Below are positions 5,283 to 60,854 of a stretch of 64,000 nucleotides of DNA, one piece after another. The position numbers and the translations under genes were made by a program. The DNA lies in assembly GCA_017560085.1 (NCBI GenBank), contig JAFYPA010000083.1, forward strand, positions 14,517 through 78,516, given 5' to 3'. Every line of letters starts with the position of its first letter. Within the stretch, counting starts at the first letter, position 1. The notes under the pieces are model-generated. The model was not told where the DNA came from. It saw nothing but the letters and a program-made list of their open reading frames with translations, and did no database searches. Source of the DNA: Clostridia bacterium. Its GTDB lineage: Bacteria; Bacillota; Clostridia; Oscillospirales; CAG-382.

Positions 5283-7259
5283 TTATTCTGCGGTATATCT
5301 GAATATTGCGGAGCTTCTCTTTTCGGCAAGTCTTACGGTAAATCCGTTTTCCGAAAGAGCTCCTCCGTCAAGTACGGCTTTCTCGCCCGTGTCGATATTC
5401 GTAAATGTGTAGTTCTTGTCTTTATCCACCGAATAAAGCTCGAAGCACGCCTCGGTAAAGGGGGATGCGTCACGGCGGAACGCAAGAAGAATACCGTCGT
5501 TTTCCTCGGGTCTGTCAAATTGTGTCGCAGACCATGTTGTGTGGTCGTCCGTCGGCTTTGTAAGCGGATAAATATCCTCCGAAAAGTAGGGACGGAGCGA
5601 AAGATATTCCTCAAGACATCCCTTCAGCCACGCAAGCTCATCCTTGTTTTCACCGAAGGGCATATGCTTTGAGAATGTAAAGCAGGTGGAAAGTGCCGTG
5701 CCGTAAGCGCTTCTGAAGTGGTAGGTGTCGTGATAAGTGCTTCCTGCGTTTGTGCCCGAATAAGGCATCCAGGAGCCGAAATTCTGCATATGCGTCTGTG
5801 CAATTTCACTCTCGTAGTTGCCGTAGCAATATGCGTCGCTTCGCCAGAGTGGTATGCTTCTTCTGAGAGTTTCAATATCAATTCGTCTTCCGCCCGAGGC
5901 ACAGTTATCTATAATAAGTCCCGGGAATTCCTCAAGAAGCGTATCCCAGAATCTGTAAAGCCCCATTATGTGCTTGATTTCCGTGATGCCCCGTCTGTCC
6001 TCGGTGTCGTATTTTCTGAAATGCTCCAGAGGTCTGAAGTTGAAATCCTGCCTGTAGCAGTCAATACCCATCGTTCTTATTGCGTTTGCGGTTTCGTTGT
6101 AGATGTAATCCCACGCATCGTCGTTGCCGAGATTCAGAAGAAGGTTGGCTTCTTCATCGTTAAGGGCGAGGAAATATTCGGGATGCTCCTCTGTTACGGG
6201 CATACCCCTTACAACTCTTTCAGGCTCAAACCATAAAAGGAATTTTCTTCCGCTCTCGTGTATTGCCTTTGAAAAATCAAGAAGTCCGTCGGGATGTGTA
6301 AACTCGCTTGGGTGCCAGTCGCCCGTGAATTTCGACCAATGGCAGGAGCGGTCGTATTCGTCTGCCGTGGGAGTTGTTGTGCGACCGTACCAGCCTGCAT
6401 CCATCCAGATATATTCAAAGGGTAGCTTGTTCTCGTCAATTATCTTTACTCGCTTGGTGCAGAGCTCACTTTCAAGTCCACCCCACATATTTGATGCCAG
6501 CGGACCGAATTTCGGTTGTCCTTCACCGCCTATTGCAGAGTAATTTTCCTTGAGAAGCCTTCTCCATTTGTTGTGTGCGTGTACCGAGCCGCAATCGTAG
6601 GGCATAAGTACAATTGAGGATGTGCGGATTTTTTCGCCGGGAAGAAGTCTGAAATGGGTGTCCTCGATTTTTGTCTGAATAAGCACCGAATCGGGATTGC
6701 GCTTCATTCTGCAATTCCATTGTCCCGTCCAGCCTATTGCGAAAATCACACCGAAGCTCTGCTTTTCCACCTCGAAAAAGGGAGCATTTATGTCACTTGA
6801 GCGTGCGCCTGTGCTTGCATAGTTTCTTTCCTGACCTACTCTTATGTGATTGATTCTGCGCTCGCCTATGTATTCATCCACCTCCGTGTGGAACTCGTAA
6901 AGCTGCGCATTTGAGCCGTTGGGGGCGTGGATGATTGTGTGCTGTCTTATGTCGGGATATTCTCTTGAGTATCTGTATTCCTCCTCGTGGGGGAGAGGTA
7001 TTTCCACATCACAGTCCTTGAGTGCGCAGACAATTTCCGTCGGTGCGTCGCCGATGCATTCAAGATAGTTTACCCATTCGTATGAGCCGAATTTTTCGTT
7101 TTTTGTTGCGATGTTGGTTATGCGAAGACCGTTTTCGAAGGTGTATACTCTTGTGAGAGTGCTTCCGCTTTCCCTTTCTTCAAGAGTGTAGTCTTGATTC
7201 CAGGCGTATTTACCATTGTACCAAAAGCTGAAAAGCTTGTTGCTTTTAAGGAATTCCAT
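5283..7259 (-). CDS. GH36-family alpha-galactosidase-like glycoside hydrolase
   Basis: DNCASGGRRID resembles the GH36 C-x-SGGGR-x-D acid/base region, and CYRQDFN resembles the K-x-D nucleophile region. Start moved to Met23 (7259), which has an AAGGAG RBS. Confidence 0.75.
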   Translation of the reverse strand: MEFLKSNKLFSFWYNGKYAWNQDYTLEERESGSTLTRVYTFENGLRITNIATKNEKFGSYEWVNYLECIGDAPTEIVCALKDCDVEIPLPHEEEYRYSREYPDIRQHTIIHAPNGSNAQLYEFHTEVDEYIGERRINHIRVGQERNYASTGARSSDINAPFFEVEKQSFGVIFAIGWTGQWNCRMKRNPDSVLIQTKIEDTHFRLLPGEKIRTSSIVLMPYDCGSVHAHNKWRRLLKENYSAIGGEGQPKFGPLASNMWGGLESELCTKRVKIIDENKLPFEYIWMDAGWYGRTTTPTADEYDRSCHWSKFTGDWHPSEFTHPDGLLDFSKAIHESGRKFLLWFEPERVVRGMPVTEEHPEYFLALNDEEANLLLNLGNDDAWDYIYNETANAIRTMGIDCYRQDFNFRPLEHFRKYDTEDRRGITEIKHIMGLYRFWDTLLEEFPGLIIDNCASGGRRIDIETLRRSIPLWRSDAYCYGNYESEIAQTHMQNFGSWMPYSGTNAGSTYHDTYHFRSAYGTALSTCFTFSKHMPFGENKDELAWLKGCLEEYLSLRPYFSEDIYPLTKPTDDHTTWSATQFDRPEENDGILLAFRRDASPFTEACFELYSVDKDKNYTFTNIDTGEKAVLDGGALSENGFTVRLAEKRSSAIFRYTAE

Positions 7260-7276: not shown

Positions 7277-8155
7277 TTATATAAACATACAAGTCCCCGC
7301 AAGACAAACCGCCATAGCAATCCACTGATTCCTTGACGGTCTTTCACGGAACACAAGCATCCCTGCAATTGCGGAGAAAATGATGCTTCCCGCCGTTACA
7401 AGCGGATAAAGCACTCCCGCGGGAATTGACTTTGCGCCTATAAGCTGTAAATAGTATGAAGCACTGTCCGCAGCCGCCGTAAGAGTAAATAGAATTACCG
7501 TGCTTCTCGTAACACAGCTTCCGAATTTTTCCGAGGCTTTTTTTGTAAGCATTACCGCAACGGGAAAGCAGAGAAGAATCTTCGCAATTGCCATAATGAA
7601 AATAAAGCTTTCCGAGTTTACGGGATTGTACACCGTGTTAATCTGATGTACCTTTGAGGTAACCGACATAAATCCGTTGAGAATAAACACAGCAACGCAC
7701 ATAAGAATCTGACTCCTTGTGGGCTTTATCGCGCCCGTGTTGGAAATAATGACCGCCGCAACGATAAGCACAATACCAAGAAGTCGAAGAAGCGAGAACG
7801 CCTCATCAAGAAAGGCAAGCCCGAAAAGATAAGGCACAAGCATTCCGCCCGTCATAAGAAACATCGTGTAAAGCGGCATATTCCCCGCACGAAGAAGCTT
7901 GAAGCCGATTACCATATAGGAAAGACATATGCCTGTCGCAAGCACCGCCATTATTGCGGAAAAGACGGAAAATTGCAGCTCATACACACCGCAAAGAGTC
8001 AGTACGGAAAAGATTACAAGCGTGGCAAGTCCCGCAAAGGCATTGAAGGTAAGAGTCGCACGGGCACTTGTTCCCGCTATGCTCTGATATTTTTTCTGAA
8101 ACACAAAGCAGAGTGCAAGAAGTGCATCCGCACCGAGAATGAGTAGGTAATGCAT
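7277..8155 (-). CDS. DMT-superfamily (EamA/GlcU-like) transporter with about 10 TM segments
   Basis: 292-aa polytopic hydrophobic protein with a two-halves architecture; embedded in the sugar cluster. Substrate unknown. Confidence 0.6.
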   Translation of the reverse strand: MHYLLILGADALLALCFVFQKKYQSIAGTSARATLTFNAFAGLATLVIFSVLTLCGVYELQFSVFSAIMAVLATGICLSYMVIGFKLLRAGNMPLYTMFLMTGGMLVPYLFGLAFLDEAFSLLRLLGIVLIVAAVIISNTGAIKPTRSQILMCVAVFILNGFMSVTSKVHQINTVYNPVNSESFIFIMAIAKILLCFPVAVMLTKKASEKFGSCVTRSTVILFTLTAAADSASYYLQLIGAKSIPAGVLYPLVTAGSIIFSAIAGMLVFRERPSRNQWIAMAVCLAGTCMFI

Positions 8156-8170
8156 TTTTGATTCCTTTCG

Positions 8171-8203
8171 ATTATTTCAGATTATTTCAGATTATTTCAG
8201 ATT
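8171..8203. repeat. 10-bp tandem repeat (ATTATTTCAG x3.3) spanning a stop codon
   Basis: Read directly: attatttcag attatttcag attatttcag att. The third unit contains the TAA stop (8192-8194, minus strand) of the GH36-like gene. Confidence 0.9.
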
Positions 8204-10213
8204 GTAGAAATACAGCTTCGCACATCTCTTTTCGGGGAGCGTGAGCGTGATTCTGCCGTTTTCCGTCTCGTATTCTTCCGTTGTGTCCTTGTCGCAAAGA
8301 ACAAGCTCTTTTCCTTCGGAGAAGGCAAAATCAAGGGCTATATCGCTGTCCTCGCATTCCTCCTGACGGAATACGAAGAGAATGCCATTTTCCGCTTCCG
8401 CATCGAAATATGTGTATGCCGTGAAGCCCTCAAGGTCGTTTTCGTGATGCCACGGCGTAAGTGTGTAAAATTCCTTCAGAAGATATCCGTTTATCTCCTT
8501 CCATTCCTTGATGCCTGCTCTCAGAATATCGAAATTCTGTGTCGGGTCGTAAACAAGCTGTGTGTCAACATTGAGAGATGGGAGATAGGACGCACGCCAT
8601 ATGTACATATCGCTGTTACCCTTGCCCGAAAGCTCGCCGAGCTTCTCTCTTGTGCAGGCACCACAGAAGGGAATCCATTTATTGAAGGACGAGGTCTGCG
8701 AAAGACGGATGCCCGTGGATGTTCTGTCGTGGTCGGAACGCAGAAGCGGTACTCCGACGTGCATTGATTCAAGGTCGTTTCGACCGCCACCGCCACAGCA
8801 GGAGTCCACAAAGGCACATCCGCCGGTGCTCTTGGTTGCCTCTATTGCCTTGTCCCACAGACGGTAGTGACCGTCAAGACAGGTGATTTCCGTGTAGCCG
8901 TCACGGTTTTCGCCCTGAAGATTATCGCCCGTTGTCCAGTATTCACATCTTGAGCCGTTGTCCTCACGGAGCATATCCACCTTTGTCTTTTCCAGCACGG
9001 ATATGATTCTGTCCTCTGTCCATCTGTAGCATTCGGGGTCTCCGAGATTGCTTGTGAAGGTGTTGTCATTGAGATTTGTGGGAGCAAATGCCCATTCCTT
9101 TCTGTAGCCGTAATTTTTCTCAAGCTCCTCGGGCATACATACCTTTTCCGTGGCAAACCACAAAAGAGTTCTCATTCCGTTGTCCCTTGCAAATTCCACC
9201 GATTCACGGAAGGTGTCATCGGGCCATTTTTCATAGTCAAATTCCCAGGTGCCGAGAGTATCACGCCAGTCGTGTCCTTTTTGGAAGGGGATGGGACTTG
9301 TCTTGTCGGGAGCGACATACCATCCCGCATCCACCCAGCGGAAGTCGACCTTTATATCCTCAGCCATCATCTTTTCAAGCGACGGCTTCCACGTGCTGTA
9401 TCTTTCGGAAATGCTTCCGTCGGAATTGGGATATCCCGTATCGAATGCAAGACAGCAGGTTGAGAATGGCTTCATCGGAGTGCCGTTGCCGTCAAAGGGC
9501 GGAAGAATGTTTGTGATATAATGGCTTCTCCAGTAGTTTGTGGCGTAGTCCTCATTTCGTACCGTGTAATCCGCAATCGAGTAAAGAGCCGTTCTTATTT
9601 CCTCGTTCGGATTGAGATATGTCTTAAGATTTCTCGGTGAGCATCCTTCATAAATAACCTTTCCGTCCTCATATGTAAAGGAAGCCTTCCAAGTACCCGA
9701 CCATCCGAGTGCAAGCATTGTTCCGCCCTTTTCGTGCTCTAAATTGAAATAGGGAAAGAATTCGTGCGTTGCTCTGCCCGTGTTACAGTCAAAGCTTACA
9801 TTTTCGCTTTTGAGGTCTGTGGAATAGGGACGGTAGTAGTTGACGTGGTCACCGAGAATGCCCTTGAGAATGGGGGAATCCGTGGTAAATACCATCTTTG
9901 TGCCGAGCTTTTCTATTATTCCGCATTTTGTACCCGATGTGTTTCTGATTCGTGCAACCCATTCCGTTACGCCGTGGGTATAGTAGTGCTTCAGCGTTAC
10001 CTTGAAGGTGAGCGTGCTTTTAAAATCAAAGGTAAGAACCGCGGTTTCCGTGTCGCCCTTTCTTTCGGAGGCCTTGTCCGTAAGAGTAAAATCCTCACCG
10101 AAGCCGATATATTCCTTGCCGTCGTATGTGAATGTGAATGGAATCCTTTGGGGGCATTGAAGCATTTCAAGGTAAGCCATGTCCGAGGCGGGATTTCTGT
10201 AGTTTCTTATCAT
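8192..10213 (-). CDS. GH36-like glycoside hydrolase (divergent subgroup), cytoplasmic
   Basis: VDSCCGGGGRNDLE and MLREDNG parallel the GH36 motifs of 5283..7259. Same length class. No signal peptide. Confidence 0.6.
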   Translation of the reverse strand: MIRNYRNPASDMAYLEMLQCPQRIPFTFTYDGKEYIGFGEDFTLTDKASERKGDTETAVLTFDFKSTLTFKVTLKHYYTHGVTEWVARIRNTSGTKCGIIEKLGTKMVFTTDSPILKGILGDHVNYYRPYSTDLKSENVSFDCNTGRATHEFFPYFNLEHEKGGTMLALGWSGTWKASFTYEDGKVIYEGCSPRNLKTYLNPNEEIRTALYSIADYTVRNEDYATNYWRSHYITNILPPFDGNGTPMKPFSTCCLAFDTGYPNSDGSISERYSTWKPSLEKMMAEDIKVDFRWVDAGWYVAPDKTSPIPFQKGHDWRDTLGTWEFDYEKWPDDTFRESVEFARDNGMRTLLWFATEKVCMPEELEKNYGYRKEWAFAPTNLNDNTFTSNLGDPECYRWTEDRIISVLEKTKVDMLREDNGSRCEYWTTGDNLQGENRDGYTEITCLDGHYRLWDKAIEATKSTGGCAFVDSCCGGGGRNDLESMHVGVPLLRSDHDRTSTGIRLSQTSSFNKWIPFCGACTREKLGELSGKGNSDMYIWRASYLPSLNVDTQLVYDPTQNFDILRAGIKEWKEINGYLLKEFYTLTPWHHENDLEGFTAYTYFDAEAENGILFVFRQEECEDSDIALDFAFSEGKELVLCDKDTTEEYETENGRITLTLPEKRCAKLYFYNLK

Positions 10214-12384: not shown

Positions 12385-13266
12385 ATGCAAATTTATTTGG
12401 GAGGAGGGCTCCTATTGGTAGAAGGACGCGTTGTTGAGTATGGGGGACTTGCTCCCTTTAAGCTTCAGATAAAATACGTTGATATTTTGCCTGATGATCC
12501 GACAAACACTCACGAGGATCATATTCACGGCGAGTGCGAGATTTATATAAATCTCACGGGGGACGTTTCCTTTATGGTGGAGAATAAGATTTACCCCATA
12601 AAATCGGGAAGCGTTATTATTACCCGTCCCTGCGAATATCATCATTGCATATACCACAGCAACGAGAGCCACGAGCATCTGTGGATTCTCTTTGAGTCGC
12701 ACGGAAACGAGTCTGTTCTTCCGCTATTCTTTGAAAGACCCCTCGGTGAAAACAATCTCATCCGCCTTTCCGAAAAGCAGAAGCTCAAGGTGCTTGAAAT
12801 CTGCAAGGCAATAATTCACGGTGAACACTCGGAAAAGCAGAGGCTCGCGGACTTTATGCGGATTCTGTGCATCCTCGAAAACGCAGACGGAAGCCTTGAC
12901 GGACCTTCCGATTCCGTGCCCGAGGATATTTCCTCTGCGATTGAATTCATAGGCGAAAACCTCGGAAGTGTTTTTACCGTTGCGGATGTTGCGAAATATG
13001 CCCACATCAGTGTAAATACCCTTGAGAGGCGTTTTCTTGAGGTGCTTAAAACCACACCGTCGGGCTATATAAAAAGCAGAAGACTCGCAAGGGCGGCGGA
13101 GCTTTTACCGAGCTGTAAATCCGTCGGTGAGGTCTGCGAGGAATGCGGATTCCGAGATTATTCAAACTTCATAGCCATATTCAAAAAGCAGTTCGGTGTA
13201 ACGCCGCTGAAGTTTAAGAAAACACACGAAAAAAGAATGTCCGAATATTCGGAGGTAGCAAAATGA
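12385..13266 (+). CDS. AraC-family transcriptional regulator (cupin sensor plus HTH)
   Basis: N-terminal cupin-like HEDHIHGECEIYINLTGD and C-terminal AraC HTH (GFRDYSNFIAIFKKQFGVTPLKFKK). The start may instead be TTG at 12415, which lies 6 nt after GGAGGAGGG. Confidence 0.85.
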   Translation: MQIYLGGGLLLVEGRVVEYGGLAPFKLQIKYVDILPDDPTNTHEDHIHGECEIYINLTGDVSFMVENKIYPIKSGSVIITRPCEYHHCIYHSNESHEHLWILFESHGNESVLPLFFERPLGENNLIRLSEKQKLKVLEICKAIIHGEHSEKQRLADFMRILCILENADGSLDGPSDSVPEDISSAIEFIGENLGSVFTVADVAKYAHISVNTLERRFLEVLKTTPSGYIKSRRLARAAELLPSCKSVGEVCEECGFRDYSNFIAIFKKQFGVTPLKFKKTHEKRMSEYSEVAK

Positions 13267-15263
13267 GCGATAAAAAGAAAATAATAAACTTAGGCATACT
13301 CGCCCATGTTGACGCAGGCAAAACCACCGTTACGGAAAACCTTCTGTACTTCTGCGGAAAGACAAGAAGCCCCGGCAGCGTTGACAGCGGAAATACCGTC
13401 ACGGATAGCAGTGAAATCGAAAAGAAAAGAGGAATTTCCGTTTTCTCCTCGGGAGCGGATATTCAGTACGGCGATTTTACCGTGAACATAATCGACACCC
13501 CCGGACACGTTGATTTTGCGGGGGAGGCGGAGAGAAGCATTATGTCCCTTGATGCGGCACTGATTGTGGTTTCAGCCGTTGAAGGACTTCAATCCCACAC
13601 GGAAAACATTATGCAGACCATCATACATAACAAGCTTCCCTGCGTGTTTTTTGTAAACAAGATTGACAGAGCGGGCAGCAGCTTCAAAAGAGTAGTAAAC
13701 GAGCTTTCCGAGGCATTCGGCAAGAGATTTGTGTGTCTTAATGTCCCCGTGGGAGAGGAATCGAAGGGGTGTAGTGTTGCACCAAACGAGGATTTCCGCA
13801 CCGAAGCTTCCGAGGTCCTTGCGGAATACAACGACAGCATAATGGAAAAATATCTTTCCGACGAAGAAATATCCGACATTGAGCTTCAGAGCGTGCTTTC
13901 AAACGAGTGTGCCAAAGGCGAGGTTTACCCCGTTGTCTGCGGAAGCGCAATGTACGGCATAGGCATCGGTGAGCTTCTTGATGCGGTCGTAAAAAATCTT
14001 CCCGACAGCACGAAAATCGGCACGGACAAGCTCTCGGGCGTTATTTATAAAATCGAGCACGACAAAACCTTCGGTGTTCTTTCCCACGTCAGAATGTTCG
14101 GCGGAAGTCTTAACGCAAGGGATACGGTGGTGCTAAAATCCCCGAAGGACGATGCACCTTCAAATGACGGCGAGGAGAGGGAAGAACGAAGCGAAAAAAT
14201 CGCACAGATACGAAAGAAGGTCGGAGGCAAATTCTTCGATACGGGTACTGTTGAAAAGGGCGATATCGCCGTTCTCTGCGGTCTTTCAAAGGCGAAGGTC
14301 GGCGACTATATAGGCGAAATTACGGCAGAGCGAAGGCTTGACCTTGTAAACCCCTTCCTTCAGGTTTCGGTAATTCCCGAGGATGAAACAAAGCTTACGG
14401 CACTTGCATCTGCTCTTGCCGAGCTTTCCCGTGAAGAGCCGTACATCAACTACAGATGGGAAAAGAGCGAGCGTGAGGTTGTTATCAGCATCACGGGAAA
14501 AATTCAGCTTGAAATCATAGCAAATCTCCTTCTTGAGCGCTACGGTCTTAAGGTGACATTTACTCCTCCGAGCGTAATATACAAGGAAACACCGGGTATG
14601 CGTGCCGAGGGATTTGAGGCGTATACTATGCCCAAGCCCTGCTGGGCGGTCGTACAGCTTCTTCTTGAGCCGACAAAGCGTGGAAGCGGTGTAAGCTTTG
14701 ATATGGGCAACGTACCCAACAATCAGCTTTTCTACAGATATCAGTCCCACATAAAGCAGTCCTTTTTTACAAGCATAGAGCAGGGAATCTACGGCTGGGA
14801 GGTCACCGACTTCAAATGTACTCTTATCGGCGGTGAGCATCATACGATACATACCCATCCGCTGGATTTCTTCGTGGCAACTCCCGTTGCATTCCTGCGT
14901 GGGCTTACCAACTCCCGTTCAAGACTTCTCGAGCCTTATCTTAAGGTAAGAATCGGCGCCCCCGAGGAATATATGGGTAAAATCACGGGTGATATAGTTA
15001 TGATGCGAGGCGAATTCGACACCCCCGTAATCAAAAACGGCAAGACCACAATAGAAGCCTTTCTCCCCGTTGCGGACAGTATGGACTACCCCACAAGACT
15101 TGCCTCACTTACGGGCGGCAAGGGTATGATTCATTCCGCCTTCGGCTTTTACAGAGAATGTCCCGACGGCTTTATGAAGACCTGCAAGCGCCGCGGAGTA
15201 GACCCTCTTGACAGAGCAAAATGGATTCTTCACTGCCGTGGTGCAATTACCGAGGGAATATAA
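13263..15263 (+). CDS. EF-G-family translational GTPase of the Tet(M)/Tet(O) ribosomal-protection type
   Basis: The N-terminus INLGILAHVDAGKTTVTENLLY...NIIDTPGHVDF...NKID is collinear with Tet(M) G1-G4. At 666 aa it is in the Tet(M) size class. GGAGG RBS; ATGA overlap with the AraC stop. Confidence 0.75.
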   Translation: MSDKKKIINLGILAHVDAGKTTVTENLLYFCGKTRSPGSVDSGNTVTDSSEIEKKRGISVFSSGADIQYGDFTVNIIDTPGHVDFAGEAERSIMSLDAALIVVSAVEGLQSHTENIMQTIIHNKLPCVFFVNKIDRAGSSFKRVVNELSEAFGKRFVCLNVPVGEESKGCSVAPNEDFRTEASEVLAEYNDSIMEKYLSDEEISDIELQSVLSNECAKGEVYPVVCGSAMYGIGIGELLDAVVKNLPDSTKIGTDKLSGVIYKIEHDKTFGVLSHVRMFGGSLNARDTVVLKSPKDDAPSNDGEEREERSEKIAQIRKKVGGKFFDTGTVEKGDIAVLCGLSKAKVGDYIGEITAERRLDLVNPFLQVSVIPEDETKLTALASALAELSREEPYINYRWEKSEREVVISITGKIQLEIIANLLLERYGLKVTFTPPSVIYKETPGMRAEGFEAYTMPKPCWAVVQLLLEPTKRGSGVSFDMGNVPNNQLFYRYQSHIKQSFFTSIEQGIYGWEVTDFKCTLIGGEHHTIHTHPLDFFVATPVAFLRGLTNSRSRLLEPYLKVRIGAPEEYMGKITGDIVMMRGEFDTPVIKNGKTTIEAFLPVADSMDYPTRLASLTGGKGMIHSAFGFYRECPDGFMKTCKRRGVDPLDRAKWILHCRGAITEGI

Positions 15264-15280: not shown

Positions 15281-15330
15281 AATGTGCAATGTGCAATAAA
15301 ATGTTGAAAAATGTTATAAAATGCAATAAT
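15281..15330. repeat. degenerate heptamer tract (AATGTGC AATGTGC AATAAAATGTTGAAAAATGTTATAAAATGCAATAAT)
   Basis: Read directly. Starts 17 nt after the stop of the Tet(M)-like gene and has the same AATGNNN phase as the other arrays. Confidence 0.5.
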
Positions 15331-18561: not shown

Positions 18562-20769
18562 TTAAGTTCTTGAGAACATTTTGTCAAGCTTTGATTTTGT
18601 AAACTCCAGAAGAACCGGTCTTCCGTGAGGACAGTACAGCACAGCCTCATCCGAAAAGAGAATATCCGCTATCATAGTAGAGGATAGCTTGGATGTTTTC
18701 GTGCCCGCCTTTACCGCTGCCTTGCAGGCTGCCGTGTAAAGAGCTCTGTCGAATATGTCGCCTATAGCTTTGCCTCCGCCTCTTGCAATCTGTCCCGCAA
18801 GGTATACGAAGGTTTCCGATGCGCTTTCGATATCTATTTCCGCGGGAACGCCTCGTATAATATAGGAATTACTTCCGAATTCCTCAAATACATATCCGAT
18901 GTTTTCAAGGTAATCTCCGTTTTCCGCAAGGGCAATTGATTCCTCTGCGGCAAGATCCACCGTGAGAGGCATAAGAAGAAGCTGAGTCCCGCCCTCCTTT
19001 TTGCCCTTCTTGAGGGATTCGTAAATGATTCTTTCGTGTGCGGCGTGCTTGTCTATCATATAAAGAGTATTGTCACGCTGAACGATAATATAGGAATTGA
19101 ACGCCTCACCTATGACGGTTATGCTGTTGGCAACACGGCTCATAAGCTCTGCCGCGGTATCCTCGTCCGTACTCTCACGGAAAGGAATATCAGGCTCGGT
19201 TTTAGCCTTGCCCGGCATACTCCGGAAAAGCGAAATATCGTCGGGAGTGAGCTCCTTTTGCGCTTCTGCGGGGGAGCTTTCCCTTGTGACGCTTACTTCC
19301 TCTGTTTTTTCGCAAGTCTCTGCCTCTGTATCGGCTTCCTCTTTTACCTCGGGAGCATCAAAGACGAGCTGTGTGCTTTTGTTGTCCTCGGGAATTTTGC
19401 ATCCGAATTTTCTCAGTGTCTCATCGTCAACACGCACAAATTCGATAGGCTCGGGCTCCGTACTCTGTATGGGATTTACGACCTTCTCGGGCGTTATTTC
19501 CGCGGGAGCTTTTTCCGGCTCCGATGTCTGCACCTTGTTCTCGGGAGCTTTTGCGTAGTCGGGGAGACTGTAGTCAAAGTTTCGGGAGTTTAATTCCTTG
19601 CCCGAATCCTTGCCGAAGAATTTCTCAATGCTTTCGGGATTTGGAACGGATATTATACCCTTGTCCGCAATCATCTCCGACGGCTTTGAAAGAGCCTCGC
19701 TGAAGGTGGTGCTTCTCTGTGAGGGCTCCGTACCGAACTCACCGAGGTCGCGCTGAGGTCTCGGAAGCGATATGTTTTCCGTGCCTCTGGAAAGCGCGTT
19801 TCGCACGGCGTACATTATTGTTTCAAACACCTGACGCTCGCCGGAGAATTTAACCTCAAGCTTTGCGGGGTGGATGTTGATGTCTACCTTGTCAAAGTCG
19901 ATTGTAAGGAACAGAACGCAGGCGGGGAATTTGCCTATGGGGCAGAAGCTCTTGAAGCCCTCCTCAAGACCTGCGGTCATTGTGCCTGACTTTATATATC
20001 TTTCGTTTATAAAGAAATTCTGAAGGTTTCTGTTAGGTCTTGCAATCTGCGGCTTTCCTATAAAGCCCGAGACGGAAAGACCGTCGAACTCATAGCTTAC
20101 GGGAAGCATATTGTCCGTGAATTCTCTTCCGAGCGAGGCGTAAATACAGTTCTTAAGGCTTCCGTCACCGGGGGTTTTAAGCTTTACCGCTCCGTCGGAA
20201 ATAAAGGTTACCGCGATATAAGGCTTGGAAAGTGCGAACTTTTCCACCGCCGCACCGACCGCCTTGGATTCGGAAACATCCTTACGCAAAAATTTTCTTC
20301 TTGCGGGTACGTTTTCGAAAAGGCTTTCCGCAATAATTGTCGTACCTACGGGACAGCCCGTTTCGTTAATTTCCTTTTTCTCGCCGAAGTCGGCGGCAAA
20401 ATAAGTACCCGTTTCGTCCGAGGCTCGCTTTGTCATTATGCGAAGCCTTGTCACGGCAGATATTGCCGCAAGAGCCTCGCCTCGGAAGCCCAGTGTGCTG
20501 ATTGCCGCAAGGTCGTCCTTTGTTTTTATTTTACTTGTTGCGTGACGCAGAATACAGGTAGGAACATCCTCTGCGGCAATACCGCATCCGTTGTCGCTTA
20601 CTCTTATATAACTGCTTCCGCCGTTTTTTATTTCAACGGTAATCTGTGTAGCACCCGCATCGGCGCTGTTTTCCATAAGCTCCTTTATGGCGCTTGAGGG
20701 CCTTTCGACAACCTCGCCCGCCGCAATAAGGTTCGCCGTATGCTTGTCAAGTACGTTGATTATACCCAA
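18562..20769 (-). CDS. mutL: DNA mismatch repair protein MutL
   Basis: ANLIAAGEVVERPSSAIKELMENSADAGAT GHKL ATPase N-terminus. TTG start at 20769, preceded by GGAGGTG. Confidence 0.95.
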   Translation of the reverse strand: MGIINVLDKHTANLIAAGEVVERPSSAIKELMENSADAGATQITVEIKNGGSSYIRVSDNGCGIAAEDVPTCILRHATSKIKTKDDLAAISTLGFRGEALAAISAVTRLRIMTKRASDETGTYFAADFGEKKEINETGCPVGTTIIAESLFENVPARRKFLRKDVSESKAVGAAVEKFALSKPYIAVTFISDGAVKLKTPGDGSLKNCIYASLGREFTDNMLPVSYEFDGLSVSGFIGKPQIARPNRNLQNFFINERYIKSGTMTAGLEEGFKSFCPIGKFPACVLFLTIDFDKVDINIHPAKLEVKFSGERQVFETIMYAVRNALSRGTENISLPRPQRDLGEFGTEPSQRSTTFSEALSKPSEMIADKGIISVPNPESIEKFFGKDSGKELNSRNFDYSLPDYAKAPENKVQTSEPEKAPAEITPEKVVNPIQSTEPEPIEFVRVDDETLRKFGCKIPEDNKSTQLVFDAPEVKEEADTEAETCEKTEEVSVTRESSPAEAQKELTPDDISLFRSMPGKAKTEPDIPFRESTDEDTAAELMSRVANSITVIGEAFNSYIIVQRDNTLYMIDKHAAHERIIYESLKKGKKEGGTQLLLMPLTVDLAAEESIALAENGDYLENIGYVFEEFGSNSYIIRGVPAEIDIESASETFVYLAGQIARGGGKAIGDIFDRALYTAACKAAVKAGTKTSKLSSTMIADILFSDEAVLYCPHGRPVLLEFTKSKLDKMFSRT

Positions 20770-20795
20770 AGAGTGATTTCACCTCCGGAGAAAAT

Positions 20796-21037
20796 ATAGT
20801 GAAGAGTGAATGGTGAATAGTGAATAGTTTAGGTTAATTTGCTTCGCAAATTTTCATTTGATTTAAAATTGAAGAGTGAAGGTTTTGAAGTGAATGCGTT
20901 GAATTTCGGATAAAACAATTTAAATCCAAATCGAAGAAAGCGAAGCTTTCTACATCAAAGCGAAATTCCGCAGGAATTTCTTAAGGAAAATCTTCGATTT
21001 TCCGGTCTCTTCACTATTCACTCTTCACTATTCACTG
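20796..21037. repeat. intergenic cassette copy A: heptamer-array inverted termini plus four triloop hairpins
   Basis: Left arm 20796-20828 is (GTGAAKA)x4; right arm 21007-21037 is its inverted counterpart. Hairpins: 20836-20852 (AATTTGC-TTC-GCAAATT), 20935-20951 (AGAAAGC-GAA-GCTTTCT), 20962-20980 (GAAATTCC-GCA-GGAATTTC), 20985-21003 (GGAAAATC-TTC-GATTTTCC). Confidence 0.8.
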
Positions 21038-21040
21038 ATA

Positions 21041-23632
21041 TCAGTTCGTGTATTTCTTAAGCTCGTACAGCCTCTGAAGTGCCTCAATCGGCGACATTGT
21101 GTCGAGGTCTGTGTGCTTTATTATGCTGTAAACCTTGTCCTTTGCCAAATCGTCAAAGGAGAGGGTAGGCTCGTCTGTCTGCTTTTTTGCACCCTTGCCG
21201 AGCGGAATGCCTACGCCGTTTTCAAGGCTTTCAAGGACCTCCTTGGCTCTCTTTATTACTTCATTCGGTACGCCCGCAAGCTTTGCTACCTCGATACCGT
21301 AGCTGTCGTCTGCGGCACCCTCCACTATTTTGCGAAGGAATATAAGCTCGTCGCCTCTCTTTTTTGCGGCGATGGAGTAGTTTACTATGCAGGGGAAGGT
21401 TTCGGAAAGCTCGGTAAGCTCGTGATAGTGGGTCGCGAACATTGTCTTTGCTCCGATTTTCTTGCCCGCTGTGTATTCGGCAATGGCTCTTGCAATGCTC
21501 ATACCGTCATAGGTGGACGTGCCTCTGCCGATTTCGTCGTATATAATGAAGCTCTTTTTTGTTGCGTTTGCGAGAATGTATGCCACCTCGTTCATTTCAA
21601 GCATAAAGGTGGACTGTCCCGAAGCAAGGTCGTCGCTGGCACCCACTCTTGTGAATACCTTGTCCACAATACCGATTCTTGCGCTCTCGCAAGGAACGAA
21701 CGAGCCTATCTGTGCCATAATTACGATAAGCGCATTCTGTCTCATATAGGTGGACTTACCAGCCATATTGGGACCTGTGATAAGCATAATTCTGCGGTTG
21801 CCGTCAAGATATGCGTCGTTGGGAACAAACATCTGATTTCCCGACATATACTTCTCGACAATGGGGTGTCTGCCGCCTCTTATTTCAAGCTTGTCAGAAT
21901 AGTCAACCTCGGGGCAGACATAGTTGTTCTTGCTTGCAACATCCGCAAGGGAAACGTAAACATCAAGCTTTGCAAGAAGCGAAGCCGTTCTCTGAAGCCT
22001 TACCACATTTGCGGAAATAAAGGAGCAAAGCTTTACGAAAAGCTCATACTCAAGTGCAACAATCTTGTCCTGTGCACCGAGCACCTTGGATTCCATATCC
22101 TTGAGCTCCTCGGTGATGTATCTTTCGCATCCCGTGAGAGTCTGCTTTCTGATGTAGCGAAGAGGTACCATATCGATATTGGACTTTGTGACCTCTATAT
22201 AGTAACCGAATACACGGTTATAGCCGATTTTAAGATTCTTAATGCCCGTAGCTTCCTTTTCGGCGGCTTCAATCTGGGTAATCCAGCTCTTGCCCTCGCC
22301 CATAATGCTGCGAAGCTCATCCACCTGCTCGCTGTAACCCTCACGGATAAATCCTCCTTCACGCACGGAGAAGGGAGGATTGTCGCAGATTGCGGCGTGG
22401 ATTTCGTTCTTTATGTCGGAAAGCTCGTCGATATTCATATAAAGCTCGCAAAGCTCGGGGCTTGTCATTGTGGCAAGAAGCTCACGGATTCTCGGAAGAT
22501 GCTCGCAGGTGGTCATAAGAGCCACAAGGTCTCTGCCGTTTGCCGTGCCGTAGACTATCTTTGTAAGAAGTCTTTCGATATCGTTGATTCCCGCAAGCTC
22601 AAGCTGAAGCTCCTCCTTTGCGATAAAGCTTCCGAAAAGCTCCTTTACCGCCTCCTGACGGGTGTTTATGAGATTTACCGAAACAAGGGGCTGCTCAACC
22701 CACTTACGAAGAAGTCTTGAGCCCATAGCAGTCTTTGTCTTGTCAAGCACCCAGAGAAGTGTGCCTCTCTTTTCGCGGGTACGCATAGCCTCGCAAAGCT
22801 CGAGGTTTCTTCTTGTGTTTACATCTATCGCAAGGAACTGCTCGTTGTTGTAATATGTAAGCTTGTTGATGCTTGTAACATCGTGCTTCTGTGTTTCCGT
22901 AAGGTAATCAATAAGTGCGGAAAGCGCAATAAGTGCGGGTGATTCGGGGTCTATACCGTACTGTGAAAGGTAATCCTCGCCAAACTGCTTTGTGAGAATA
23001 TCAAGTCCCTTTGTGAATCTCTCGCTGTCGTTTGCACCGAGGAACGCACCGAGTCTGCCTCTTATGTAGTCCGCAAGCTCGTCAAGGCTTTCCTCATCAA
23101 TGTTTGTAATGATTTCACTGGGGTTATAAACCGCAAGCTCTCCCATAAGCCTTGATATTATGTCACCCTGTGAAAAGTCTGTTGCATAAACCTCCGCCGT
23201 GGAAATATCCGCTACCGCAAAGCCCGCACGACTACCCTCAATGTACATAGCACAAAGGTAGTTGTTTTTGCCGTCAAGAAGAAGGCTTCCCTCGGTAACG
23301 GTACCGGGCGTAATGATTCTTACAACATCGCGCTTTACAATGCCCTTAGCCGTCGCGGGATCCTCCACCTGCTCGCAGATGGCAACCTTATACCCGCGGC
23401 TGACAAGCTTCGCAATATATCCTTCCGCACTGTGATAAGGAACACCGCACATAGGCGCACGCTCCTCCATACCGCAGTCACGCCCCGTAAGAGTAAGCTC
23501 CAGCTCACGGGAAGCGGTCTTGGCGTCATCAAAGAACATTTCATAAAAGTCTCCGAGACGGTAGAAAAGAATATGATCCTTGTATTGGTCCTTGACTTCA
23601 AAGTATTGAAGCATCATGGGAGTGTAGGGCAT
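21041..23632 (-). CDS. mutS: DNA mismatch repair protein MutS
   Basis: MLQYFEVKDQYKD N-terminus and Walker A ITGPNMAGKSTYMRQ. Start set at Met14 (23632). The upstream MHYALCI extension is read-through into a heptamer repeat. Confidence 0.95.
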   Translation of the reverse strand: MPYTPMMLQYFEVKDQYKDHILFYRLGDFYEMFFDDAKTASRELELTLTGRDCGMEERAPMCGVPYHSAEGYIAKLVSRGYKVAICEQVEDPATAKGIVKRDVVRIITPGTVTEGSLLLDGKNNYLCAMYIEGSRAGFAVADISTAEVYATDFSQGDIISRLMGELAVYNPSEIITNIDEESLDELADYIRGRLGAFLGANDSERFTKGLDILTKQFGEDYLSQYGIDPESPALIALSALIDYLTETQKHDVTSINKLTYYNNEQFLAIDVNTRRNLELCEAMRTREKRGTLLWVLDKTKTAMGSRLLRKWVEQPLVSVNLINTRQEAVKELFGSFIAKEELQLELAGINDIERLLTKIVYGTANGRDLVALMTTCEHLPRIRELLATMTSPELCELYMNIDELSDIKNEIHAAICDNPPFSVREGGFIREGYSEQVDELRSIMGEGKSWITQIEAAEKEATGIKNLKIGYNRVFGYYIEVTKSNIDMVPLRYIRKQTLTGCERYITEELKDMESKVLGAQDKIVALEYELFVKLCSFISANVVRLQRTASLLAKLDVYVSLADVASKNNYVCPEVDYSDKLEIRGGRHPIVEKYMSGNQMFVPNDAYLDGNRRIMLITGPNMAGKSTYMRQNALIVIMAQIGSFVPCESARIGIVDKVFTRVGASDDLASGQSTFMLEMNEVAYILANATKKSFIIYDEIGRGTSTYDGMSIARAIAEYTAGKKIGAKTMFATHYHELTELSETFPCIVNYSIAAKKRGDELIFLRKIVEGAADDSYGIEVAKLAGVPNEVIKRAKEVLESLENGVGIPLGKGAKKQTDEPTLSFDDLAKDKVYSIIKHTDLDTMSPIEALQRLYELKKYTN

Positions 23633-23650
23633 GGGAAGGTCCTTTCTGAG

Positions 23651-23849
23651 AATGCATAATGCATAATGCATAATGCATAATCAATGTTAATTTGCGTTGC
23701 AAATTTTCATTTTTGAATTTTATTTATTTTAGTTTGAATTTTAGAAATATTTTTGATTGCACACAATACCAATTCAAATTAAATTGAAGGAAGCGAAGCT
23801 TCCATCCACGATTATGCATTATGCATTATGCATTGTGAATTGTGCATTC
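23651..23849. repeat. intergenic cassette copy B: (AATGCAT)4 left arm and inverted right arm, sharing a core with copy A
   Basis: Left arm 23651-23681; right arm 23811-23849 (ATTATGC x3 then ATTGTGAATTGTGCATTC). Hairpins 23689-23705 (AATTTGC-GTT-GCAAATT) and 23789-23803 (GGAAGC-GAA-GCTTCC) correspond to hairpins 1 and 2 of copy A. Confidence 0.8.
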
Positions 23850-23861
23850 GCACTGACTCCG

Positions 23862-24272
23862 TCAGTGCTTACAGTTGCTCTTACAGCTCTCGCAATGTCC
23901 GCTGCAACCGCCCGTTGCGGAGGCTTCTGTGTCGGAAAGGAAGGAGCCGATTGTGGAGTTTACGGCACCGATGAGAACGTTGAATTCCTGCTCTGCTGTC
24001 TGGAATCTCTGGTATACGGGGTGCTCGTTGATTTCGCGGTAAAGAGTTTCCGCTCTTGCTCCGATTGCGTCTATAATCTGCTCGTCTGCGTTGGTAAGCT
24101 CTGCCTGCTTGTCGAGAAGGTCCTTCTGTACCTTGAATTCGGAAAGCTTTGTCTTGAGCTCGTCGTTGGCGAAGAATTCTTCCTTTGCCGCTTTGTATTC
24201 GGCAAACTTCTTGCTTGCCTTGAGTTCTTTTCCGAGTGTCTTTGCGAGTTCTATAATCTGAAGCTCTGTCAT
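23862..24272 (-). CDS. YlbF/YmcA-family protein with a Cys-rich C-terminal tail
   Basis: 136-aa helical protein in the position between miaB and mutS that ymcA occupies in Bacillus. C-terminus GGCSGHCESCKSNCKH. Confidence 0.6.
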   Translation of the reverse strand: MTELQIIELAKTLGKELKASKKFAEYKAAKEEFFANDELKTKLSEFKVQKDLLDKQAELTNADEQIIDAIGARAETLYREINEHPVYQRFQTAEQEFNVLIGAVNSTIGSFLSDTEASATGGCSGHCESCKSNCKH

Positions 24273-32571: not shown

Positions 32572-33705
32572 ATGACAGTCGTAGGACTTATATTTTCAAA
32601 CGTATATGACAGAAACATCTCCGAAATGACACGCAAGAGAACAATGGCAAGCGTACCCTTCGGATGCAGATACAGACTTATTGACTTTGCTCTTTCCAAT
32701 ATGGTAAACTCGGGAATAGACAAGGTTGGTATCGTAACACACTATAACTATCAGTCCCTTCTCGACCACATCGGAAACGGTAAGGACTGGGACCTTGCAA
32801 GACGCTCGGGCGGTATCAAGATTCTTCCTCCCTTCATTACGGCGTATGACAGCAATGTTGCAAACAAGCTCTATTCCACAAGACTTGAGGCAATGATTGG
32901 TATAAACAACTTTATAAACCGCTGCACGGAGGACTATGTTGTTCTTTCCGACTGCGATATTATCTGCAACATCAACCTTTCAAAGGTTATAAAGCAGCAC
33001 GAGGAAAGCGGTGCGGATCTTACCGTAGTAACAAAGAAGATGTTCCTCACGGACGACGATGCGGGCAAGCACACCATTATCGAATCGGATGATGAGGGCT
33101 ATGCATCCAATGTATATGTAAGCACATCCAACACAATCGGAATCAATCCCATCTCCACAAACATCTACGTTATCAAGAGAACAACCCTTCAGGGACTTCT
33201 TCTTGAGGCGCTTGCACACGGCTACAAGTCCTTCACGCTTGATGTTCTTACGGTTCTTGCAAAGAAGAGACTGGTTAAGTGCTACGAATTTGACGGCTAC
33301 TATGCATACGTTCATTCCCTTGCGGGCTATTTCTCCACGAGTATGCAGCTTCTTGACCCCAATGTCCGTGCAGGTCTTTTCGGCATAAAGCACAGACCCG
33401 TTATGACAAAGGTGCGTAACTCCGCTCCCACAAAGTACACGGACGGCGCTGTGGTTAACAACTCCCTTATCGCCGACGGCTGTGTAATTGAGGGTGAGGT
33501 AATCGACTCAATCCTCTTCAGAGGCGTAAAGGTTGGCAAGGGTACTGTTATCAAGAACTGTATTCTTCTTCAGGACACATACATCGGTGAAAACTGCAAT
33601 CTCAACTGTGTAATTACGGATAAGAATGTAGTTATCAAGGACGGAAGAAATCTTTCGGGACACGAGTCGATGCCGTTCTTTATTGAGAAAGGGGCAAGAG
33701 TTTAA
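32572..33705 (+). CDS. glgD: glucose-1-phosphate adenylyltransferase, GlgD regulatory subunit
   Basis: Paralog of glgC lacking the GGxGxRL loop (FSNVYDRNISEMTRKRTMASVPFGCRYRLIDFALSNMVNSG). Position immediately after glgC. Confidence 0.9.
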   Translation: MTVVGLIFSNVYDRNISEMTRKRTMASVPFGCRYRLIDFALSNMVNSGIDKVGIVTHYNYQSLLDHIGNGKDWDLARRSGGIKILPPFITAYDSNVANKLYSTRLEAMIGINNFINRCTEDYVVLSDCDIICNINLSKVIKQHEESGADLTVVTKKMFLTDDDAGKHTIIESDDEGYASNVYVSTSNTIGINPISTNIYVIKRTTLQGLLLEALAHGYKSFTLDVLTVLAKKRLVKCYEFDGYYAYVHSLAGYFSTSMQLLDPNVRAGLFGIKHRPVMTKVRNSAPTKYTDGAVVNNSLIADGCVIEGEVIDSILFRGVKVGKGTVIKNCILLQDTYIGENCNLNCVITDKNVVIKDGRNLSGHESMPFFIEKGARV

Positions 33706-33741
33706 AAAAGAATGCATAATGCATAATGCATAATGCATAAT
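33654..33741 (+). repeat. direct repeat DR1 (glgD 3' end, stop codon, A-run and (AATGCAT)4AAT array)
   Basis: 55 nt (33654-33708) are identical to 34038-34092. The array 33711-33741 is identical to the left arm of cassette B. Confidence 0.9.
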
Positions 33742-33819
33742 TAAGACCGCTTGCGGTCGGAGGATTGCTTCTCGATCTTCGTTTGATTGAATTTTAATCA
33801 GAGGAAAGGACGTGATTGG

Positions 33820-34089
33820 ATGAAAAATCTTAAGCTGTTTTTCTCGGCGCTTACGGTTGCGTTTGGGATTCTGGGCTTGACTAAGGCTCTTTCGACAGAT
33901 GTTTCGATGCCGATAATGTTTGTGTGTCTGGCAACGACTATGTTTATTACGTCCAAAGAATACAAGGATAACAATCAAAAAAGGACGGCGGTTTATTTTC
34001 TGCTGTTGGGGGTGTTCCTTGTGGCGGTAACCGTATATTCGGGACACGAGTCGATGCCGTTCTTTATTGAGAAAGGGGCAAGAGTTTAA
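33820..34089 (+). CDS. small 3-TM membrane protein (DUF3953-like) whose last 16 codons are a copy of the glgD 3' end
   Basis: 89 aa with a GAGGAAAGGA RBS. The C-terminus SGHESMPFFIEKGARV is identical to the GlgD C-terminus because of DR2. Confidence 0.5.
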   Translation: MKNLKLFFSALTVAFGILGLTKALSTDVSMPIMFVCLATTMFITSKEYKDNNQKRTAVYFLLLGVFLVAVTVYSGHESMPFFIEKGARV

Positions 34090-34110
34090 AAAGAATGCAT
34101 AATGCATAAT
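34038..34110 (+). repeat. direct repeat DR2 (second copy of the glgD 3' end plus (AATGCAT)2AAT)
   Basis: Identical to DR1 over 55 nt, 384 bp downstream. One A fewer in the A-run and two fewer heptamers. The following CTTCGTTTAATTAAA resembles 33776-33792. Confidence 0.9.
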
Positions 34111-46197: not shown

Positions 46198-46230
46198 AAT
46201 TGTGCATTGTGCATTGTGAATTGTGCATTC
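46198..46230. repeat. solo heptamer array (ATTGTGC x2, ATTGTGA, ATTGTGC) abutting the proA stop codon
   Basis: Read directly. The 21-mer TGCATTGTGAATTGTGCATTC is identical to the end of the right arm of cassette B (23829-23849). Confidence 0.8.
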
Positions 46231-60351: not shown

Positions 60352-60364
60352 ACTCAATGTAGTT

Positions 60365-60391
60365 TTAGCACTCGCGCTTAAAGAGTGCTAA
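60365..60391 (+). promoter_or_regulatory. CIRCE operator (HrcA binding site)
   Basis: TTAGCACTC-gcgcttaaa-GAGTGCTAA is a perfect match to the CIRCE consensus TTAGCACTC-N9-GAGTGCTAA. Confidence 0.95.
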
Positions 60392-60727: not shown

Positions 60728-60746
60728 GAATCAAAACTGCGTTTTG

Positions 60747-60854
60747 AAAATGCACAATGCAAAATGCAAAATGCAAAATTGATGTGAAAATTTCTTCGAA
60801 ATTTTTATTTTATTGAAATCGCCTGCGGGCGAGGGGAATCGGGGGGTTCCCGAT
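60747..60854. repeat. partial intergenic cassette (copy F) inside the groES-groEL spacer
   Basis: Array AAATGCACAATGCAAAATGCAAAATGCAAAAT (60747-60779). Hairpins 60787-60805 (AAAATTTC-TTC-GAAATTTT), 60819-60832 (TCGCC-tgcg-GGCGA) and 60838-60854 (ATCGGG-gggtt-CCCGAT). Confidence 0.65.

Follow-up and report, generated by a model that had tools for sequence, protein, structure and literature searches.

Short intergenic repeats resembling the element considered here, which we call E1 and which lies between mutS and mutL in a 64,000-nucleotide stretch of Clostridia DNA (hereafter the window, meaning the whole stretch analysed), have been described in several bacterial groups. An excess of heptamer simple sequence repeats (SSRs) in prokaryotes has been ascribed to polymerase slippage (Mrazek 2007, as cited in PMC4692102). 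In Xanthomonas (unit GGGAATC) and Nostoc (unit GGGGA(C/T)T), four units are preferred and the arrays lie on average 28 nt from the upstream open reading frame (ORF); most of them are transcribed, and some are found as inverted pairs (PMC4692102). In Beggiatoaceae, Cyanobacteria and Bacteroidetes, repeats of TAACTGA directly adjoin start or stop codons (PMC4679880). REP, REPIN and BIME sequences are extragenic palindromes, tagged by GTAG or CGTC, that are mobilised by RAYT transposases of the HUH type (PMC3733652, PMC3116915). A survey of REP hosts makes no mention of Firmicutes or Clostridia (PMC3733652).

E1 is a real element of an undescribed family. We give a probability of about one half to the reading that it is one copy of a small, non-coding, REP/REPIN-like family of palindromes, distributed in a genus-level clade of Oscillospirales-like Clostridia and in at least one phage. 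The window belongs to a 109-kb scaffold (ENA ERZ28653921) obtained from the gut metagenome of a ruminant, and the host is an uncultured bacterium whose MutS is at most 68% identical to that of any GTDB species representative. Heptamer SSRs have already been reported from Nostoc, Xanthomonas and Beggiatoaceae, so that the arrays by themselves are not new. What is undescribed, in Rfam, in the literature search and in the REP survey (PMC3733652), is the coupling of arrays to a covarying hairpin module, together with the copy-specific inverted pairing of the arrays, the use of several units in one genome and the occurrence in Clostridia. A first-pass annotation, made from the sequence, had not recognised the element from the literature, which is right for the hairpin coupling and wrong for the arrays (PMC4692102, PMC4679880). 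The literal element sequences gave no match in the literature search.

The arrays of the window have the defining features of heptamer SSRs, namely, tandem 7-nt units, at least three copies and an intergenic position, 1-20 nt past a stop codon or just before a ribosome-binding site (RBS). They also resemble the reported heptamer SSRs, among them the STRR sequences of Nostocales, in having about four units, in lying nearer the end of the upstream ORF and in occurring on either strand; stop codons are often in or at the array, and inverted pairs are occasional. However, the reported SSRs are bare arrays with essentially one unit per genome, of function unknown or attributed to G-quadruplexes, whereas the arrays in the window use several units within 64 kb, form copy-specific inverted pairs and are attached to a conserved hairpin module. 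BLAST searches against phages and plasmids found no annotated relative, the only matches being Nostoc heptamer arrays. In plasmid pC052_D of Nostoc sp. C052 (L211, 217240-217330), (GTTATCA)n runs from a stop codon and is followed by a hairpin, CCATCAATtcATTGATGG, and by (TATTCAC)4, whose unit is that of the right arm of E1. This array sits between mobF and a restriction endonuclease gene.

E1 occupies 20796-21036 (241 bp) and fills the interval from the mutS stop codon to the mutL RBS. The genes ylbF (23862-24272), mutS (21041 to about 23632) and mutL (18562-20769) follow one another on the minus strand. The mutS-mutL spacer is 271 bp, with the mutS stop codon at 21041-21043 (minus strand) and the mutL RBS, CACCTCC, at 20780-20786. 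The first-pass annotation had reported inverted arrays of four heptamers at both ends, four perfect hairpins with 3-nt loops (TTC, GAA, GCA and TTC), one of them containing GCGAAGC, and the mutL RBS at the edge of the element, all of which are present where it had placed them. The left arm, (ATA) GTGAAGA GTGAATG GTGAATA GTGAATA (20796-20828, plus strand; Tandem Repeats Finder [TRF] period 7, 4.7 copies), lies 9 nt from the mutL RBS, and the right arm, TCTTCAC TATTCAC TCTTCAC TATTCAC (21007-21036, plus strand; TRF period 7, 3.9 copies), ends 4 nt from the mutS stop codon. As inverted repeats the arms show a complementarity of 87% across 30 nt or of 92% across 25 nt.

Inside the left arm is the left module core (20829-20864, plus strand; covariance-model match of 65.6 bits), made up of the linker TTTAGGTT, the perfect hairpin H1, AATTTGC-ttc-GCAAATT (20836-20852), with its TTC loop, and the T-rich tail TTCATTTGATTT (20853-20864). 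The right module core (20922-20961, minus strand; 38 bits) has the linker GCTTTGATGT, the hairpin H2 and the tail TCGATTTGGATTT (20922-20934). H2 reads AGAAAGC-ttc-GCTTTCT on the minus strand (20935-20951), so that the plus strand has a GAA loop and GCGAAGC; GCGNAGC forms an extraordinarily stable DNA mini-hairpin (PMC13037366). The centre (20865-20921) is AT-rich, is not conserved between copies and contains degenerate heptamers at 20870-20895. Between the right module core and its array lie two extra hairpins (20962-21003), both perfect, GAAATTCC-gca-GGAATTTC (20962-80, GCA loop) and GGAAAATC-ttc-GATTTTCC (20985-21003, TTC loop), separated by TTAAG. These twin hairpins fall in a gap of the alignment with E2, the sister element described below, and because E2 lacks them they are probably a nested addition. 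Twin units of the form hairpin-T(T/A)AAG-hairpin recur in or beside elements, in the window at 20962-21003 and in the relative L206 at 9590-9625, 14536-14571 and 6095-6140, and may constitute a separate small repeat family nested in the elements.

The GC content of E1 is 0.32, against about 0.48 in the flanks. That it has no ORF and fits no known family, as first annotated, agrees with a longest ORF of 31 aa and with the Rfam covariance models, which gave no match at the gathering score over the window and none at E <= 10 over 20700-23950. A scan for tRNA and tmRNA gave no match, and no promoter reached the threshold of the tool in the E1 core. The predicted RNA fold has an energy of -70.8 kcal/mol for the sense and -83.2 kcal/mol for the antisense strand, while dinucleotide shuffles average -41.5 and -50.4, respectively (z = -7.0 and -7.5; as good in 0/200 shuffles). 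Perfect triloop hairpins of at least 7 bp number 11 in the window against 4.65 in shuffles, and 8 of the 11 are within three element-bearing spacers; the fold and the hairpins exceed the shuffled expectation, which the first-pass annotation had made a test of its proposal. Independent assemblies from other samples carry the identical E1 sequence (L223, L224, L225), and the E2 sequence was likewise found in an independent assembly (L221). E1 and E2 are, therefore, not assembly artefacts.

Alignment of 21 modules identifies the conserved unit as a half-element, the module, which consists of about four heptamers, a linker of about 9 nt, a perfect hairpin of 6-8 bp and the T-rich tail TTCATTTGATT. 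The linker follows the pattern ..AATTnTKGTT, the C·G pair closing the loop is invariant and the tail is TTCATTTGATT or a variant of it. The loop is TTC in 11/17 modules, and in 13/17 the other strand has a GNA loop closed by C·G. A full element consists of two facing modules whose arrays point outward and abut the flanking genes, the full foldback being about 240 bp; the centres have no homology between copies and vary in length from about 0 to 110 nt. The single four-hairpin cassette of the first-pass annotation is accordingly replaced by two modules, although the four hairpins it listed exist, the two at 20962-21003 being extras.

The module stems have 13 different sequences and covary. In the stems 94% of cells are paired, both sides have changed in 6/7 pairs and 36 cells are compensatory, a level matched by 0/500 shuffles, although the set was gathered partly by demanding perfect stems, which inflates these pairing figures. 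Sliding the partner columns collapses the signal. Pairing in the stems is Watson-Crick only, with zero G·U pairs, and for this reason a DNA-level palindrome fits better than a structure formed in RNA only. Further hints of a hairpin acting as DNA are the GNA loop closed by C·G, which is the motif of the stable DNA mini-hairpin (PMC13037366), and the REP hairpins that adjoin heptamer arrays in related genomes. A strict scan, which required a stem of 6 bp or more, closure by C·G, a triloop and a T-rich tail, found 5 modules in the window against 0.175 in shuffles, and all 5 adjoin a heptamer array. A covariance model of the module recovered the 5 window modules and no others at E <= 1, and it also found modules on which it had not been trained, in L117, in L219 and near 9150 in L206. 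It gave 0 matches in 1.34 Mb from 80 more distant relatives, where an adjacent array was found at 0/24 comparable hairpins. The density of modules is 5 in the 64-kb window, with 1 more in its flanks (L212), and 5 in 22 kb of L206. The TTGAT within the module tail resembles the target pentanucleotide of ISDra2, and is offered as a lead only.

The sister element E2 (23651-23848, plus strand) fills the ylbF-mutS spacer and was delimited by TRF, by alignment to E1 and by the covariance model. Its arms are (AATGCAT)4 (23651-81) and (ATTATGC)3 ATTGTGA ATTGTGC (23811-48), its H1 is at 23689-23705 with a tail to 23717 and its H2, GGAAGC-gaa-GCTTCC, is at 23789-23803. E1 and E2 have in common an exact 27-nt sequence, GTTAATTTGCnnnGCAAATTTTCATTT, located in the left module core of E1 and at 23686-23712 in E2, and the hairpin AAGCGAAGCTT, but the heptamers of their arms differ. 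The groES-groEL spacer holds a lone module (60731-60817, plus strand), detected by TRF, the strict scan and the covariance model; it comprises a hairpin (60731-47), the array (AAAATGC)4.7 (60747-79), the hairpin AAAATTTC-ttc-GAAATTTT (60787-805) and the tail TATTTTATTGAA. The remaining sites are bare arrays. (AATGCAT)4.4 (33711-33741, plus strand) lies 5 nt past a stop codon, a second short AATGCAT array is at 34094-34110, (ATTGTGC)4.4 (46199-46229, minus strand) lies 1 nt past the stop codon of the minus-strand gene 46231-47487, and a short decaying array, (AATGTGC)2.4 (15281-15297, plus strand), lies 18 nt past the stop codon of gene 13263-15263. The window thus holds two full elements, one lone module and four bare arrays (15281, 33711, 34094, 46199), so that in place of the three or more further related copies that had been annotated there are one full and one half copy, the four other sites being arrays without the module.

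An exact direct repeat of 55 nt (33654-33741 and 34038-34110) takes in the AATGCAT array together with the stop codon and 3' end of gene 32572-33705. Its copies are spaced by 384 nt, with an ORF of 100 aa (33787-34089) between them, and the region looks like a small insertion or duplication with its junctions at the heptamer array.

Period 7 dominates the tandem repeats of this region. Arrays of period 7 number 7 in the window, and a further 6 turned up in 58 kb from its closest relatives; the other periods from 5 to 12 are essentially missing, the window having none of period 5, 6, 8, 9, 11 or 12 and one of period 10. Seven of 9 arrays begin within about 20 nt of a stop codon, and the other 2 are inverted partners that end just before an RBS. 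The heptamers form a loose family (GAATAGT, GCATAAT, GCACAAT, GCAAAAT and GAATTGT differ by one or two substitutions). The arms are copy-specific, that is, paired within a copy and different between copies: alignment scores of the two arms within an element are 20-28 in 7/11 elements and 10-16 in the other 4, whereas scores between elements with unrelated heptamers are mostly 4-10. An inverted pair of arrays with no core between them is found in L020 (8849-8909).

Among described elements, REP/REPIN/BIME sequences are a closer analogue than miniature transposable elements with inverted repeats (MITEs), because the arms vary from copy to copy and target-site duplications are lacking. The first-pass annotation had called E1 MITE-like and a member of a dispersed non-coding family. 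The structured, non-coding and dispersed nature stands, as does the small size; the terminal inverted repeats (TIRs), however, are not shared between copies, and neither a target-site duplication at E1, E2 or the phage copy nor, in gene tables for about 60 kb, a parent insertion sequence (IS) was found. The MITE-like Correia/NEMIS, ERIC, RUP and BOX elements resemble E1 in being 100-250 bp long, without an ORF, with inverted termini and located between co-transcribed genes, although for mutS and mutL the co-transcription given in the first-pass annotation is an assumption. Their transcripts form a long hairpin that can be cut by RNase III or RNase E, or can terminate or stabilise mRNA. In these families, however, the TIRs are constant, the target site is duplicated (to TA in the case of Correia) and a parent IS can often be identified. 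With the REP group the modules share short hairpins outside coding regions, single or in facing pairs that fold into a longer hairpin, and a dispersed, strain-variable distribution in operon spacers and in or near repair genes; recognition as single-stranded DNA may be a further likeness. The modules differ in lacking the GTAG or CGTC tag, their flanks being KGWT and AATCAAATGAA/TTCATTTGATT, in having AT-rich triloop hairpins with an outer, copy-specific heptamer array per unit, and in that no RAYT was seen in gene tables covering about 60 kb.

Other analogies are looser. Integron attC sites are also imperfect palindromes at the 3' ends of genes, with site-specific paired arms, and act as folded single strands, but the elements have no RYYYAAC/GTTRRRY cores at the arm ends and no integrase in the gene tables, their neighbours are housekeeping and rRNA genes, and the conserved part is internal and not terminal. 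The foldback (FB) transposons of eukaryotes have arms of short tandem repeats in variable number, but these, unlike the arms in the window, are family-constant at their tips. Mitochondrial double-hairpin or repetitive hairpin elements (PMC2800124), Rickettsia palindromic elements and rRNA intervening sequences invade intergenic regions and rRNA loops, a behaviour comparable to the helix-6 copy described below. The FB, mitochondrial and Rickettsia elements are from different hosts and have no sequence relation to E1.

The distribution of elements differs between relatives at the same gene junctions. About 60 relatives have short mutS-mutL spacers without an element; in about 50 the gap measures 11-100 bp, compared with 271 bp in the window. 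In a relative with a 72%-identical MutL the spacer is about 60 nt and empty, which answers the check for empty sites that had been proposed with the first annotation. In a 69% relative (L207) it is the ylbF-mutS spacer that is empty, and in a 75% relative (L206) both spacers hold module-bearing elements that are differently built; the two hairpin types lie on opposite sides in the ylbF-mutS elements of the window and of L206, which are orthologous. In L207 a restriction-modification pair (NgoPII-type endonuclease and C5 methylase, 8123-9971) is inserted between mutS and mutL; this junction appears to be a recurrent insertion site in the group. In a Ruminococcus sp. metagenome-assembled genome (MAG; L063, 12590-12789) the mutS-mutL spacer measures 212 bp, and its inverted arms, of heptamer periodicity (GAAGACT GAAAAAT GAATAAC GAATAAT / ...CAATTTT CAGTATT), surround a different core, GGGAGGGCggaGCCCTCCC; this element appears to be independent of E1 although at the same site.

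Strains of the same species also differ. Conspecific contigs that are at least 99% identical over groES diverge 2 nt past its stop codon, the window having the lone module and the others (L218/L219) a full element, in which the H1 hairpin is the same and the arms are AGTGGAC/AGTGGGC. Beyond the element, L218 (810-1128) has the 3' end of a convergent pgk-like gene in place of groEL, and L219 (810-903) departs from L218 just past the H1 hairpin. In two contigs from different samples and assemblers (L223, about 940-1220; L224, about 400-683) E1 is identical but for one base in the first array, and the upstream gene is GDPD-like (...NGMTCNFPDKLAETLKE*), not mutS. The TGA stop codon of this gene is inside the first heptamer, and the junction falls exactly at the outer edge of the array. 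The GDPD-E1 junction is either a second copy of E1, a recombination or rearrangement at the array edge, which would take mutS out of its position, or a chimeric join at a repeat, and even a chimeric join at E1 requires a second copy of the repeat.

Copies are also found outside such spacers. A phage copy, with arms GGATTTA/GGGGATA, lies between two genes in four IMG/VR contigs. Another copy is in a 16S rRNA gene (L153, 305-483), where it makes up part of an insert of 178 nt, placed by the Rfam SSU model at the helix 6 tip; helix 6 there is unusually long, with an extra stem of about 27 bp below the inserted element, and the whole insert may be an intervening sequence. The short versions in L125 and L153 show that arm-hairpin-tail-hairpin-arm is sufficient. 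The exact core pattern had 0 matches in the GTDB species representatives, in which the lineage has no close representative. When the pattern was loosened and applied to metagenomes, the true members among the matches listed were only L117, L125, L153 and L161; most of the matches listed were unrelated, terminator-like hairpins of the type GGATGAAAATTTGCgaaGCAAATTTTCATCC. A scan of viruses for the H2-type module yielded only chance matches in coding DNA, besides the phage copy already known.

The empty sites in relatives, the alleles of conspecific strains and the copies in a phage and in 16S rRNA fit an element that is likely to be mobile or recombinogenic, now or recently, as far as distribution can indicate. 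Spread and reshuffling would occur at the DNA level, through single-stranded hairpins, as with REPs and their RAYT-type HUH enzymes, and/or by recombination between copies. The arms would be fast-evolving slippage arrays and not fixed transposase-binding ends, and would stay complementary within a copy either through templated repair of the fold-back or panhandle type or because pairing is selected for. In the mutS-mutL transcript E1 would fold into a long stem-loop whose basal stem of 25-30 bp begins 4 nt past the mutS stop codon and stops 9 nt short of the mutL RBS; this structure, with the terminator-like hairpins near the stop codon, would serve for attenuation, insulation or processing and leave mutL partly uncoupled from mutS. 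A bolder version, which we consider a long shot, is that the arms are both made and kept matched by templated reiteration or panhandle repair, coupled to an enzyme that reads the structure of the single-stranded GNA-triloop hairpin. If so, this would be a new mode of forming the ends of a mobile element, and it would provide a mechanistic origin for the excess of heptamer arrays of about four units beside ORF ends in many phyla.

Several results weigh against the REP/REPIN-like reading. The outermost sequences are the least conserved, although transposases normally recognise ends, and it accounts neither for a period of 7 nt nor for the tendency towards about four units. No genes for a transposase, RAYT, recombinase, invertase or integrase are in the gene tables for about 60 kb around E1, flank inspection of E1, E2 and the phage copy showed no target-site duplication, and identical recent copies at two resolved loci of one genome were not seen. 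The junctions in L218, L223 and L224 are on short contigs and could be chimeric joins at a repeat, and the pairing figures are inflated as mentioned above. To these is added the weaker fold of the sense-strand RNA in 5/6 copies.

The strongest of the alternatives, which we nevertheless regard as unlikely, is that E1 is a cis-acting RNA element that evolved in place and never moved: a stop-proximal module would work as a weak intrinsic terminator or attenuator, and the long stem of the two arrays would serve as an RNase III site or juxtapose the mutS stop codon and the mutL RBS, in either case tuning mutS:mutL and groES:groEL. E1 does occupy exactly the stop-to-RBS interval, its predicted folds are strong, and terminator-like matches on the sense strand lie within the elements (23803-23789 and 20980-20962). 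E2 contains a promoter-like TTAACA-16-CATTAT directed at mutS, the arrays that follow stop codons are consistently in one orientation, and the Xanthomonas arrays are, as noted, mostly transcribed (PMC4692102). However, the same core of 24-45 nt turns up at loci with no relation to one another, in a phage and within a helix of 16S rRNA, which is hard to reconcile with evolution in place, and the absence of G·U pairs speaks against RNA as well. The strand comparison gives no support for selection on mRNA structure, the sense strand being the weaker in 5/6 copies. As intrinsic terminators the modules give a mixed picture, for besides the two terminator-like matches they have stems of 1-3 G·C pairs, AT-rich, and U-tract tails that are interrupted (TTCATTTGATT), whereas the genome also has canonical GC-rich terminators. 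A spacer of 20-60 nt suffices in most relatives. An RNA role is compatible with the REP/REPIN-like reading as a secondary effect.

More doubtful is the possibility that the elements are neutral by-products, in which 7-nt slippage in unconstrained DNA near ORF ends is followed by template switching at stable mini-hairpins, a form of quasi-palindrome correction, which copies an array to the other side in inverted orientation, with neither function nor transposition. Slippage is the cause to which the heptamer excess in prokaryotes was ascribed (Mrazek 2007, cited in PMC4692102), and bare arrays and the coreless pair of L020 (8849-8909) do exist. Perfect Watson-Crick palindromes are the expected product of template switching, and the arms are specific to each copy. 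This account leaves unexplained the linker, loop and tail conserved across loci, genomes and a phage, the tie between array and module that is seen in the clade and not in 1.34 Mb of relatives, and the whole-cassette differences between conspecific strains.

A binding-site origin of the arrays is very unlikely. The omega protein of pSM19035 binds WATCACW heptads. By analogy, the heptamers could be operator- or centromere-like sites for a ribbon-helix-helix (RHH) type of protein, one dimer per 7 bp, with the palindromes as further operators. ATTCACT is one position off WATCACW, the arrays have about 4 contiguous units, direct and inverted, near gene starts, and the heptamers form a loose family, G-M-A-W-W-R-T. 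However, the units are diverse within one genome (GTGAATA, AATGCAT, AAAATGC, AGTGGAC), many arrays lie past the stop codons of convergent genes, with nothing there to regulate, the stems covary freely and therefore are not one operator, and no candidate protein was identified. The least credible alternative is an invertible switch (inverton), in which the arms are recombination sites and a promoter or terminator in the core flips to govern mutL and mutS. Inverted repeats, 25-30 bp long, do surround a core of 130-180 bp, the hairpin types are on opposite sides in the ylbF-mutS elements of the window and L206, and a mutL expression switch is known from SpyCIM1 (PMC4689407), but E1 has the same orientation in four independent assemblies, no invertase is in the gene tables nearby, no convincing promoter is in E1, and the element is so nearly symmetric that a flip is indistinguishable from divergence.

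Arrays of about four heptamers at gene ends have been on record in cyanobacteria since 1990, and a prokaryote-wide excess since 2007, and both have gone unexplained. In the elements described here such arrays are tied, physically and in their evolution, to a conserved, covarying mini-hairpin module, and in related genomes they adjoin REPs of the GTAG type, which suggests that such arrays may be a by-product or a component of the biology of hairpin elements. In Streptococcus pyogenes the mutator phenotype is switched when a mobile island inserts at the 5' end of mutL (PMC4689407). Recombination at the elements described here could alter mismatch-repair expression or gene order, since E1 joins a different upstream gene in two other samples. 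There are practical consequences as well: the elements break or mis-join metagenome assemblies, about 180 nt are added to the V1 region of a 16S rRNA gene, and gene callers are misled into placing start codons inside arrays and modules. The mechanical ORF of mutS, for example, starts at 23671, an ATG within the AATGCAT array of E2, whereas the conserved N-terminus, MPYTPMMLQY, begins near 23632.

Some further observations concern the same sequences. A GH106 gene (L212, 4768) is called from the ATG of AAATGAA and reads through a hairpin and array (MKVAKQPTLIMHYALCIMH...), and mini-ORFs of 7-19 codons, probably spurious, arise similarly in other modules. One of these, MKICEAN (or longer through arrays), begins in AAATGAA and runs into the hairpin; it was judged coincidental because it has no Shine-Dalgarno sequence and its frame varies with stem length. 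In related Clostridia MAGs, GTAG-tagged, GC-rich hairpins of the REP type (e.g., GTAGGGGAGGGGtctCCCCTCCC) abut heptamer arrays (L020, 6830-6996; L047, 12600-12760; L206, 9220-9262 and 14355-14395; L117, 150-330), which suggests a general association of hairpins with arrays. In L206 a dispersed composite repeat combines the H2 module, an array and a REP. Upstream of groES in the window, a CIRCE-type inverted repeat, TTAGCACTC-N9-GAGTGCTAA (about 60364-60390), is kept in all aligned strains, as expected for control by HrcA.

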